64,000 nucleotides of DNA, taken from assembly GCA_900317715.1 (NCBI GenBank), contig ONHS01000004.1, positions 18,481 to 82,480 of the forward strand. The letters are read 5' to 3'. Numbering within the stretch: position 1 is the stretch's first letter; each line of letters begins with the position of its first letter. This document shows, piece by piece, positions 50,417 through 52,607 of this stretch. This stretch comes from an uncultured Bacteroidales bacterium (GTDB lineage: Bacteria; Bacteroidota; Bacteroidia; Bacteroidales; WCHB1-69). Made by a program: the position numbers and the translations under genes. The notes beneath the pieces are model-generated. The model ran no database searches. It worked only from the letters and a program-made list of their open reading frames with translations, and was not told where the DNA came from.

Positions 50417-51517
50417 ACAGATTCGTCGCAGTCCCTCCAGCACCGTCTCCCTGTTTGTTCCGATGTTCATCCGCATAAATCCTTCGCCTTCAGGACCGAA
50501 ATCCGTGCCGTTGTTGAGACCGATTTTGGCATCGTAAATCAATTTTCTTTCCAAATCTTTCTGCGAAAGGTGCCATGCGCGGAAATCCATCCACAACAAA
50601 AAGGAGGCCTGCGGGCGCATGAAGGTGATTTCCGGACAGTTTTCTTTCAGGAATTGTTCCGCCGTGTCAATGTTGCCTTGCAGGTATTCGAGCAACTGCT
50701 GCAGCCATTCTTCGCCGTGCGCGAAGGCCGCCTCCGCCGCGTAATAACCGAAAATGTTCCCTAACGACAACTCGTTGTGGTCCAGGAATCCGAAAAATGT
50801 CTTGCGGATTTCTTCATCCGGCACGTAACAGACCGACGAGGCCAATCCCGCCATATTGAAGGTCTTGCTCGGTGCGAAAAAGGTGATGGAGTTGTGCAAC
50901 GCCGCCTCCGACACCGTAGTGAAGGAGGTGTGATGAAACTCGGGGTAGGTGAGGTCGGCATGGATCTCATCCGAAATAACCAACACTTTGTGTTTGAGAC
51001 AAATATCGGCCACCTGCGACAGCTCCTCTTTCGTCCAAACCGTGCCGCCGGGATTGTGGGGATTGCTGAGAATCATCACCTTGCAACCTTGCGCTTTGCG
51101 GTCCAAATCCTCGAAATCGAAGGTGAAGCGACCGTTGTCCGTCTTCAGGGGACTGCTCACGAAGACGCGTCCCGTACGATGCGGCACGTTGATGAAAGGG
51201 GGATACACCGGCGTGGTGATCAGCACCTTATCGCCAGGGACGGTAAACGTTTGCAGCACAAAGGCAATGCCCTGCACGATACCCGGAATGAAGTGCATCT
51301 TGTTCCATTTCGTTGCGATTCCGTATCGTTTCTGAAACCAGTTCAATACGGCCATCTTGTAGCTGTCGGGCGCAAACGTATAACCCAGCACCTCATGGTC
51401 GCAACGCTTCCGTATCGCATCCAGAATGAAATCCGGCGTTTTGAAATCCATATCTGCCACCCACATCGGCAGCAAATCCTCCGTCCCGAAAACCTCACGG
51501 GTCATGTCGTGCTTCAC
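50402..51517 (-). CDS. PLP-dependent C-S lyase / aminotransferase (MalY/PatB family)
   Basis: CVKHDMTREVFGTEDLLPMWVADMDF aligns with the PatB SVKWD...LPMWVADMDF block, and a PLP-enzyme body follows. The ORF as given starts at GTG. The conserved first 8 codons (MNYDFNTI) lie out of frame upstream (see findings). Confidence 0.8.
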   Translation of the reverse strand: MKHDMTREVFGTEDLLPMWVADMDFKTPDFILDAIRKRCDHEVLGYTFAPDSYKMAVLNWFQKRYGIATKWNKMHFIPGIVQGIAFVLQTFTVPGDKVLITTPVYPPFINVPHRTGRVFVSSPLKTDNGRFTFDFEDLDRKAQGCKVMILSNPHNPGGTVWTKEELSQVADICLKHKVLVISDEIHADLTYPEFHHTSFTTVSEAALHNSITFFAPSKTFNMAGLASSVCYVPDEEIRKTFFGFLDHNELSLGNIFGYYAAEAAFAHGEEWLQQLLEYLQGNIDTAEQFLKENCPEITFMRPQASFLLWMDFRAWHLSQKDLERKLIYDAKIGLNNGTDFGPEGEGFMRMNIGTNRETVLEGLRRICSVRS

Positions 51518-51550
51518 GCAGCGGGGATGGTGTTGAAATCGTAGTTCATA

Positions 51551-51596
51551 ATGATGAATGATGAATGATGAATGAATGATGAATTATGAATGATTA
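51551..51596. repeat. heptanucleotide array (ATGATGA x3, 4-nt phase slip, ATGATGA, ATTATGA, ATGATTA)
   Basis: Left flank of the four-helix-bundle gene. It is the inverted complement of the array at 52053-52094. Confidence 0.9.
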
Positions 51597-51660
51597 TTTT
51601 TAATACAATAATAGGGGTTGTTCGTTGAGGATTGTATGTTTAACAAAATATATTTCTATT

Positions 51661-52059
51661 ATGAAAACTGATAATGTAATTTTGATTAAAAGTAAGGCGT
51701 ATGCTTTGAGGATTATTAAGATGTACAAGTATTTGTGCGCTGAAAGGAAAGAGTTTGTGATCTCAAAACAAATTTTACGCAGTGGCACGTGTATTGGTGC
51801 AAATGTTCGAGAGGGTAGTAGAGGTCAGTCAAAACCAGATTTTATTGCAAAAATGAGTATAGCGCAGAAGGAAGCTGAAGAAACGTGCTATTGGCTTGAA
51901 CTGTTGTTTGAAAGTGGTTATATCAGTAAAAGAATTTTCGAGAGCATGTATGAGGAAAACCTTGAAATCATAAGAATCCTTTCTTCAATTATAATATCCA
52001 CCCGACAAAACCTAAAAACGAAGTCCGCTACAAGCAAGAATCAAACCTATTATTCATAA
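51661..52059 (+). CDS. four-helix-bundle protein (23S rRNA intervening-sequence protein family)
   Basis: 132 aa from ATG 51661. The pattern AYALRIIKMYKYL...ISKQILRSGTCIGANVREG...DFIAKMSIAQKEAEETCYWLELL is the family signature. It is strongly AT-rich relative to its neighbours. Confidence 0.85.
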   Translation: MKTDNVILIKSKAYALRIIKMYKYLCAERKEFVISKQILRSGTCIGANVREGSRGQSKPDFIAKMSIAQKEAEETCYWLELLFESGYISKRIFESMYEENLEIIRILSSIIISTRQNLKTKSATSKNQTYYS

Positions 52060-52094
52060 TTCATCATTCATCATTCATCATTCATCATTCATCA
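52053..52094. repeat. heptanucleotide array (TTCATAA, TTCATCA x5)
   Basis: Right flank of the four-helix-bundle gene. It contains that gene's TAA stop and the alternative-frame stop of recR. Confidence 0.9.
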
Positions 52095-52607
52095 TTTTTA
52101 CCGTACGCGCTTCCAAACTCCGTCCGCGCCACAATCGACCTTCCCAGCGTCGCTTCGTCCGCGTATTCGAGTTCCTCGCCGACGCATCTCCTTGATACCG
52201 CCGGCGTTCACTCTGTCAAAGAGCTGCTGGATGGTAAGTTGCTGGATGCCAATGCCGTCCATCGGGGAAATGACGCCGCCCAAGACGTGGTAAACACCTT
52301 GGTACTGATGCGTGTTCTCTATGGCGATGACATCACGGATGTCCTGCACCACGCAGATGACCCCCGCGTCGCGTTTCGGGTTGGCGCAGATGTCGCAGAG
52401 GTCGTGATCTGAGATGTTGTAGCACTGCCGGCAGAAAACCACATCGCTCTTGAGCTTGTTGATGCGGTCGGTGAGCAGCGTCACGTTGGCTTCGTCCTGC
52501 TTGATGAGGTACAGGGCGAGTCGCAGCGCCGACCGCTTGCCGATGCCGGGGAGCTTGGAAATCTCGTTGACAGCATTCTCTAAGTTCTTGGAATATAGGG
52601 AAATCAT
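52085..52607 (-). pseudogene. recR: recombination protein RecR, apparently disrupted (internal deletion plus frameshift)
   Basis: The N-terminal 138 aa are canonical (Hh[14 protein letters not shown], Cys4 zinc finger CRQC...CDIC, start of Toprim VVQDIRDV). After GGIKE the frame yields [12 protein letters not shown]..., while the +1 frame encodes the conserved C-terminus [23 protein letters not shown] ending at 52085. About 36 aa of Toprim are missing. Confidence 0.6.

Follow-up and report, generated by a model that had tools for sequence, protein, structure and literature searches.

We analysed a 64-kb window (the whole stretch of 64,000 nt taken from contig ONHS01000004.1) of an uncultured rumen Bacteroidales bacterium, in which a small AT-rich gene lying between recR and patB is enclosed by two mutually complementary arrays of tandem 7-nt units. 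The segment from 51547 to 52097 is probably a stem-loop cassette of the intervening sequence (IVS) type that resides outside ribosomal RNA (rRNA), and since its layout matches that of the Coxiella IVS, it is best read as a putative intergenic counterpart of the 23S rRNA IVSs of Coxiella and Leptospira that carry an open reading frame (ORF). A preliminary description of this DNA had proposed a cassette inserted or moved by recombination between the arrays, with collateral erosion of the two flanking genes.

The ORF in the loop (Table 1) belongs to the PF05635/TIGR02436 four-helix-bundle (4HB) family, that of the 23S rRNA IVS proteins. Its product matched PF05635 with E=1.5e-27 (96.3 bits, cutoff 33.8) and TIGR02436 with 102.1 bits (cutoff 24), and the comparison with PDB 2RLD, a solved Bacteroides protein, gave E=2.8e-34. 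The protein keeps R40, N48 and E51 of the family motif and has Cys44 at the position of the serine, a residue found in 9/9 orthologues and in 11 of the 12 public rumen and gut metagenomes (X1-X12) whose contigs, near-identical to the window and mostly at 95-100%, were compared with it. Cys44 results from a T at 51790; the A that specifies serine was present in those 11 runs, and T only in X10. Among orthologues the ratio of non-synonymous to synonymous substitutions (dN/dS) in the ORF was 0.05-0.12, indicating that it is a working gene under purifying selection. The GC content was 35% for the ORF and 32% for the whole cassette, as compared with 52.5% for patB, 56.9% for recR and 49.6% for the window, in which no second 4HB gene occurs. 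A defence link at the cassette was sought with PADLOC, which gave no match, and a phage link with PHROGs, which gave nothing significant, only two weak phage records turning up otherwise.

Both arms are tandem heptamer arrays, which Tandem Repeats Finder delimited at 51550-51594 (period 7, 6.9 copies, one short 4-nt unit) and at 52052-52096 (period 7, 6.4 copies, 97% matches). They are reverse complements of each other over 26 nt at 100%, 33 nt at 91% and 47-49 nt at 76-77%, and they mirror each other even in the order of their variant units, both running from the outside inwards through (AATGATG)n, AATTATG and a degenerate unit beside the gene. The 14-mer TGATGAATGATGAA occurs 19 times with up to two mismatches, against 0.78 expected by chance, and the arm pair is the sole inverted repeat of at least 24 nt within a 3-kb span in the whole window. 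The tandem units are confined to the intergenic spacer, with a slight overlap of both arms into coding ends: the outer end of the 5' arm adjoins the patB start codon (51549-51547, - strand), and the 3' arm contains, on the - strand, the codons with which recR originally ended together with its stop codon. The copy number of the 5' arm varies between populations, with 7 nt fewer at 51550 in X2, X3 and X5. In the predicted RNA fold of 51540-52105, the arms pair into a stem of ~45 bp in both the minimum free energy (MFE) and the centroid structures (MFE -146.5 kcal/mol, z=-4.6). The element is thus closed by terminal inverted repeats that form a stem around it, as IVSs are, but it does not lie in an rRNA helix, its site being between recR and patB and Rfam finding no rRNA in the window. 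The preliminary description had reported the AT-rich 4HB-family gene, its orientation opposite to both neighbours (ORF on the + strand, patB and recR on the - strand) and the inverted heptamer arrays around it, and all of these were borne out.

A DNA transposon or miniature inverted-repeat transposable element was rejected, given that the arms differ in sequence between loci, that inspection revealed no direct repeat outside the arms that could be a target-site duplication, and that the cassette holds no transposase or any other ORF besides the 4HB gene. A recombinase, as in an invertase-driven switch, had no match among the six genes that flank the cassette (~47.9-55 kb), which were assigned by NCBIfam as BamH-like, GlgA-like, PatB, RecR, M16 peptidase and MtaB.

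The same arrangement emerged when species-representative genomes were surveyed for the 80 nearest 4HB homologues, which covered Bacteroidota, Ruminococcus and other Clostridia, Alpha- and Deltaproteobacteria, Acidobacteria, Kiritimatiellae and Ignavibacteriae. We scored 78 of these loci for arrays at a distance of up to 150 nt and used 99 other genes in the same loci as controls. A period-7 array lay within 150 nt of 54/78 4HB homologues versus 3/99 control genes (Fisher p ~1e-22), and array density was 3.6 per kb near the 4HB ORF versus 0.125 per kb elsewhere in the loci. Arrays stood on both sides at 25 loci, and at 22 of them the downstream unit was the reverse complement of the upstream unit; such inverted pairs were present at 22/78 4HB loci and at 0/99 controls (p ~2e-9). 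When the upstream flank was aligned with the reverse-complemented downstream flank, 43/78 loci reached a score of at least 40, compared with 7/78 in direct alignment. The arm units were locus-specific (for instance ATTACAG/CTGTAAT, ATTACGA/TCGTAAT, AGTGTAT/ATACACT and TGGAAAA/TTTTCCA), and the ORF was AT-richer than its flanks in 77/77 loci (mean GC 0.33 vs 0.44), with arrays as AT-rich as the ORF itself in the GC-rich hosts L138 and L131. Complete genomes of cultured organisms had the layout in 5/5 cases examined, with differing units: Nostoc punctiforme and N. flagelliforme, both (CAATTCG)4-ORF-(TTGCGAA)4, Euhalothece, Treponema saccharophilum and Bernardetia. The most compact arrangement is illustrated by locus L158, in which the ATG lies within the last 5' unit, the first 3' unit begins with the TAA and the ATG of the next gene follows directly after the cassette, leaving no room for a separate promoter. 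No rRNA context was found by Rfam among 40 homologue loci. Taken together, these results indicate that the module of a gene plus inverted heptamer arms recurs across many phyla. At two loci (L099, 2492-3364; L116, 2492-3416) a 4HB cassette was seen directly upstream of the transfer-messenger RNA (ssrA) gene.

This genome has heptamer arrays at other sites as well: the window alone contains at least 15 more in intergenic positions, with several different units (AGTTAGC/GCTAACT, GCCAACA, TAATTCA, CAAAGTT, CTTAAAC, CCCTAAA, ATGACGT and others), several of them with a super-period of 14 or 21 nt and adjoining start or stop codons of housekeeping genes, their neighbours including DedA/VTT, NUDIX, HerA-like, asparaginase and SulP genes. 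The arms could accordingly be generic intergenic arrays that belong to the neighbouring genes, one to the recR 3' end and one to the patB leader, with an ordinary 4HB gene between them and an incidental inversion; in agreement with this, relative L003, which lacks the 4HB gene, keeps an (ATTCTTA)4 array before patB, and L029, L005 and L006 have arrays after recR. This explanation is nevertheless highly improbable, as the 4HB pair is the only long inverted repeat of the window and is mirrored down to its variant units, while across phyla the arrays are enriched 29-fold near the gene, are inverted in nearly all two-sided cases (22/25) and share the AT-richness of the ORF in GC-rich hosts.

Repetitive extragenic palindromes (REP) and their associated tyrosine transposases (RAYT), including the REPIN form, comprise a single gene bracketed by inverted short repeats that are also scattered between genes. 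By analogy, the 4HB protein could bind, maintain or spread arrays of its own unit, the solitary arrays and hairpins being derivatives without the ORF. In favour of this possibility, arrays elsewhere in a locus matched the local 4HB arms at 7/7 positions in 6/31 cases versus 46/2321 for the arms of other loci, that is, about ten times more often, and L158 has a solitary hairpin, (ATTATGA)4-12 nt loop-(TCATAAT)6, at 1.3 kb from the cassette with that unit. Within the window, the arm variant AATTATG equals the unit of the (TAATTCA)n arrays at 29503, 41624 and 63346; in addition, Avd, a member of the 4HB fold family, is a known nucleic-acid binder. The likeness extends to a repeat type specific to the gene copy. 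On the other hand, the protein is a small helical bundle without a recognizable catalytic domain, in place of the Y1 transposase, and tandem heptamers stand in place of REP hairpins; most arrays of the window use units unrelated to the arms, the mobility of solitary arrays and their binding by the protein are hypothetical, and the sample of shared units is small, with neighbouring arrays that may share ancestry. We therefore regard a REP/RAYT-like system as unlikely. A possible counterpart of the cassette without the ORF was also observed in the window: at 9888-9969, between the HerA-like and asparaginase genes, (AGTTAGC)n and (CTAACTN)n, spaced by ~15 nt, make up an imperfect solitary hairpin.

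The history of the locus was followed in relatives recovered by anchoring on the M16 peptidase gene and the 4HB protein. The order recR-4HB-patB was present in nine other species-level rumen Bacteroidales genomes, and since recR (207-209 aa) and patB (383-388 aa) are intact in 9/9 of these cassette-bearing relatives, the cassette is a long-standing resident of the recR-patB spacer and not a recent insertion. Orthologues of patB of that length were found intact in L002, L003, L004, L007 and L028. Between the orthologues examined, the arm unit changes jointly in both arms: it is AATGATG in the window, AATTATG in L002, ATGAAGA/ATGTAGA in L004, a mixture in L007, and (AATGAAG)18 with (ATTCTTC)3.4 in L028. 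The cassette has the opposite orientation in two relatives (L028/L084 and L083/L005), both of which also have a gene for a CHU_C (type IX secretion) protein inserted after recR. In the close relative L003, the 4HB gene is absent and a CHU_C gene is present instead. The CHU_C proteins encoded in the spacer differ from each other (L028, 7966-9375; L003, 4312-6600; L005, ~8050 onward), and heptamer arrays border the insertion in L028 and L005; L003 has no array after recR, (AATTCAG)3 after the CHU_C gene and its (ATTCTTA)4 before patB.

Both neighbours of the cassette are damaged in the window, as the preliminary description had stated. In patB, the original ATG and ten codons (MNYDFNTIPA) are kept and are followed by the 16-nt deletion, which puts the start out of frame; the missing + strand letters are AAATGTCCCCTTGCGG, and the gene still scored 445.7 bits against TIGR04350 (model positions 14-379 of 384). 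In recR, the 107-nt deletion takes out ~36 codons and the Toprim core and shifts the frame, the original C-terminal frame (...GKNDE*) stopping at the TGA at 52087-52085, inside the 3' arm, and the match to TIGR00615 (158.4, model positions 3-139 of 196) falls under the cutoff of 162.55. The deletion sites lie outside the arms, at 30 nt for patB and 89 nt for recR, with no microhomology at the junctions, and the 107 nt of recR are kept in all relatives. Neither junction was found among the twelve near-identical metagenome runs. The 16 nt of patB were present in 5/5 runs covering the site (X1-X5), and the 107 nt of recR were spanned by contigs of seven runs (X2, X3, X5, X7, X9, X11 and X12), while in the other five runs contigs end at 52185|52186, with a contig record continuing into the missing segment in X1, X6, X8 and X10 and a listed loose end doing so in X4 and X8. 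As nine relatives and twelve metagenomes are without either deletion, the damage to recR and patB is private to this sequence, reflecting recent mutations or assembly artefacts, and it does not belong to the biology of the element.

These data bear on the account of the preliminary description, namely recent insertion or movement through array-mediated recombination with erosion of recR and patB as a side effect. In its favour, neither frameshifting deletion is more than 90 nt away from an arm, no other indel in the 40 kb compared with four metagenomes exceeds a tandem-repeat unit in length, and the interior of the cassette has been exchanged and flipped (see below), which lends support to recombination at the arms. 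The recent insertion, in contrast, is very unlikely, since nine species-level genomes hold the cassette at the same site with intact neighbours, near-identical populations are intact as well (patB in all 5 informative runs, the recR segment carried or run into in 12/12), and the junctions fall in unique sequence rather than in arrays; words from the junctions were also found in no indexed public run, weak evidence as few words were sampled. Collateral erosion of the flanking genes is not supported either. Comparison of the recR-patB interval in relatives, which the preliminary description had proposed as a search for empty and filled sites, gave nine filled sites and one close relative, L003, without the 4HB gene; of the pattern that it had named as contrary to its reading (the same gene with intact neighbours and no arrays), the gene and the intact neighbours were found, but the arrays were present too.

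The two deletions, and perhaps Cys44, may instead be artefacts of assembly or consensus, an explanation to which we give serious weight although we stop just short of favouring it. Both the absence of the junctions from the twelve runs and that of the sampled junction words from indexed runs agree with it, and the region adjoins an array that reached a contig depth of 300-1450x in ten of the twelve runs and of ~50-60x in X9 and X12, as compared with ~5-25x for the unique flanks; arrays of this kind break assemblies. Against it, losses of 16 and 107 nt in unique sequence with no shared k-mer would be an unusual de Bruijn or long-read error, all other differences in the 40 kb are single-nucleotide polymorphisms, 1-2-nt indels and one 10-nt tandem-repeat unit, and X10 has T51790 too, so that the Cys44 variant exists in nature. 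Single-base indels relative to all four compared metagenomes were also observed at 20024, 23619 and 44866; they could be errors in homopolymer length made in assembly or fixed strain differences.

The interior of the cassette and its flanks have followed different courses. Relative to the window, the cassette ORF is 99.7% identical in L002, with a leader (51597-51660) identical at 100% and flanks at ~90%; it is 92.7% identical in L007 and ~73% in L004 and L028, all three with flanks at ~80%. The only difference from L002 inside the ORF is T51790, and synonymous divergence is zero. The mismatch map against L002 contained 5 differences in 51400-52049 and 6-10 per 50 nt just right of the 3' arm. 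These numbers mark a recently imported tract of ~650 nt, the right-hand end of which is in the 3' arm. In a 658-nt contig of X8, the 3' end of recR is connected with the 4HB leader, the two lying on opposite strands (51585|52073, with 113 nt on the shorter side). This contig could be the junction of a flipped cassette in a population 99% identical to the window, at the level of a contig, for which a graph artefact is possible. The discordance between interior and flanks, the tract end in the 3' arm, the flipped relatives and the X8 junction together support a resemblance of the repeat arms to recombination sites. Two further contigs were noted. A patB contig of X8 departs from the window sequence at 51471 into the array-like AATCATCATT, and a 560-nt contig of X10 holds the cassette with the T51790 allele and, past the inner 5' arm (51561), a different left flank, GGCGGTCAACTTATTTCAGGCATTGACATT; the X10 cassette may lie in another genomic context.

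We propose the following model for the cassette, in which the Coxiella IVS serves as the template. A small AT-rich 4HB ORF would sit in a loop closed by two complementary heptamer arms of ~45 nt, and a transcript crossing both arms would fold them into a long duplex; here this could be a sense transcript initiated before the 5' arm or a read-through from recR to patB, and in the compact versions of other genomes the host operon transcript would cross both arms. RNase III, whose action at the recR-patB locus we infer from Coxiella, would cut the arm duplex, release the ORF-bearing loop and leave the flanking RNAs usable, and the host would in this way bear little cost from an element placed in an rRNA helix or between genes. 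At the DNA level, the arms would act as homologous handles through which the interior might be flipped or replaced by a copy from another lineage, and they would remain complementary while the sequence of the unit drifts.

Several observations weigh against this model. The ORF is antisense to its neighbours in 8/10 genomes, and because the 5' arm and the ATG are 66-136 nt apart in the recR-patB orthologue group, the ORF may have its own promoter in the leader, in which case its sense mRNA would lack the 5' arm. One metatranscriptome contig, covering 51624-51858, begins downstream of the 5' arm, and the metatranscriptome contigs, too sparse for RNA ends to be mapped, gave no direct evidence of both arms on one RNA here. 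A promoter and terminator scan, which does not model Bacteroidota promoters, returned only weak sigma-70-like matches, one of them within the leader region (51625-51654), and no intrinsic terminator. Mismatches between the arms were not enriched in G-U wobble pairs (31 GT+TG versus 28 AC+CA), and for this reason gene conversion between the arms, acting on DNA alone, could account for their complementarity. Moreover, 24/80 homologue loci were without an array at the threshold used, and many ordinary genes of this genome have heptamer arrays beside them. An IVS-type cassette remains our reading of the segment. In a wider form of it, PF05635 ORFs with inverted heptamer arms would constitute one cross-phylum class of selfish stem-loops, of which the rRNA IVSs would be a special case and the intergenic heptamer arrays (the short tandemly repeated repetitive (STRR) sequences of cyanobacteria, the TAACTGA repeats of Beggiatoaceae and Bacteroidota, and the arrays of this genome) ORF-less derivatives or cognate sites, in the manner of REPIN/RAYT; this extension is tentative, and we are inclined to doubt it.

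The remaining features of the window are listed in Table 1. The stretch 28005-32673 (an esterase-like gene, a NUDIX gene and a 908-aa ORF) was covered poorly or not at all at 97% identity in X1-X3, unlike its flanks; one array (29503-29554) lies inside this stretch and another (32778-32930) at its right edge. Skips from array to array, for instance from 29539 to 33420, were considered as cassette excision and rejected, their shorter side being 20-33 nt and inside arrays. A 27/57-nt tandem repeat was seen at 42153-42324, inside an HMA-domain ORF (41779-42342).

Table 1. Coordinates of the cassette, its neighbours and other features of the 64-kb window
Feature	Position	Strand	Remarks
5' arm	51547-51596	+	Tandem heptamers, (AATGATG)3-AATG-AATGATG-AATTATG-AATGATT
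Leader	51597-51660	+	64 nt, between 5' arm and ATG; may hold the ORF's own promoter
4HB ORF	51661-52059	+	132 aa, intact; PF05635/TIGR02436 profile matches; RxxxSxxxNxxE motif with Cys44 for Ser
3' arm	52048-52097	+	(TTCATCA)n; begins within the last codons of the 4HB ORF
patB-family C-S lyase gene	50402-51549	-	16-nt frameshifting deletion at 51520|51521; remaining ORF 50402-51517
recR	52085-52607	-	107-nt deletion at 52185|52186; present ORF 52098-52607
(TAACTGC/TAACTAC)n array	50383-50415	+	Overlaps patB stop codon; not part of the cassette
Other heptamer arrays	2438-2498, 4361-4403, 8113-8295, 9888-9969, 15403-15450, 29503-29554, 32778-32930, 33372-33454, 38100-38118, 41624-41663, 60982-61056, 63346-63467
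tRNA-Leu(GAG)	50142-50228		ARAGORN
DUF805b RNA motif	26681-26715	-	Rfam, 37.9 bits vs gathering 35.6; only Rfam match of the window

The locus and the survey tie together two puzzles that are decades old, namely the function of the IVS protein and the occurrence of genomes littered with intergenic 7-nt repeats, and they place a 4HB gene in a heptamer stem across Bacteroidota, Cyanobacteria, Spirochaetes, Firmicutes, Proteobacteria and Acidobacteria. As the layout matches the one that RNase III cuts in the Coxiella IVS, it offers a testable model of a cassette tolerated in transcripts, for which Nostoc punctiforme, Treponema saccharophilum and Bacteroides thetaiotaomicron (the source of the 2RLD protein) are cultivable carriers. 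There are consequences for annotation, the arms encoding the stop of one neighbour and adjoining the start codon of the other, and for assembly, as the arms break metagenome assemblies and can flip the cassette. The protein family, the rRNA IVSs, the Coxiella heptamers and the intergenic heptamer arrays are each known individually. Searches of the open full-text literature, with most subscription journals outside its scope, found no description of intergenic IVS-like 4HB cassettes and no general association of 4HB genes with inverted heptamer arms, only the heptamers of the Coxiella IVS being reported, and prior notice is possible.

Among known systems, Avd, the accessory protein of diversity-generating retroelements (DGRs), belongs to the PF05635 fold family (PMC10053308); unlike in DGRs, no reverse transcriptase was found by NCBIfam among the six flanking genes, template and variable repeats not having been looked for. 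Intergenic TAACTGA heptamer repeats are described in Beggiatoaceae, Cyanobacteria and some Bacteroidetes (PMC4679880). The arrays of the cassette resemble these and the cyanobacterial STRR sequences in being intergenic 7-nt tandems, often beside start codons, with lineage-specific units and in the same phyla, but whereas those are described as direct repeats with no associated gene, the arrays of the cassette are paired in inverted orientation about members of one particular gene family.

The closest parallel is the IVS of the 23S rRNA. In Coxiella burnetii, the IVS has an ORF of the PF05635 family (S23p) in a loop that a terminal inverted repeat of 28 bp closes, the ATG is preceded by GACAGAT heptamers in tandem, two or three of them depending on the strain, RNase III cleaves in the stem at the first heptamer repeat, and the GC content is 36% compared with 42.5% for the genome; the IVSs of Leptospira have moved horizontally (PMC4990558). 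The cassette shares with rRNA IVSs the same-family ORF in the loop, the terminal inverted repeats, the AT-richness and the evidence of horizontal transfer, and with the Coxiella IVS in particular the tandem heptamers by the ATG with a copy number variable between strains, a size of ~430-570 nt and a fold energy of ~-145 kcal/mol. In contrast to rRNA IVSs, it lies between the protein genes recR and patB, outside an rRNA gene, and in contrast to the Coxiella IVS, its arms are longer, pure heptamer arrays (~45 nt vs the 28-bp stem), RNase III cleavage of its stem is a prediction only, and its ORF is antisense to the neighbours and under purifying selection, while the Coxiella ORF appears to be decaying.

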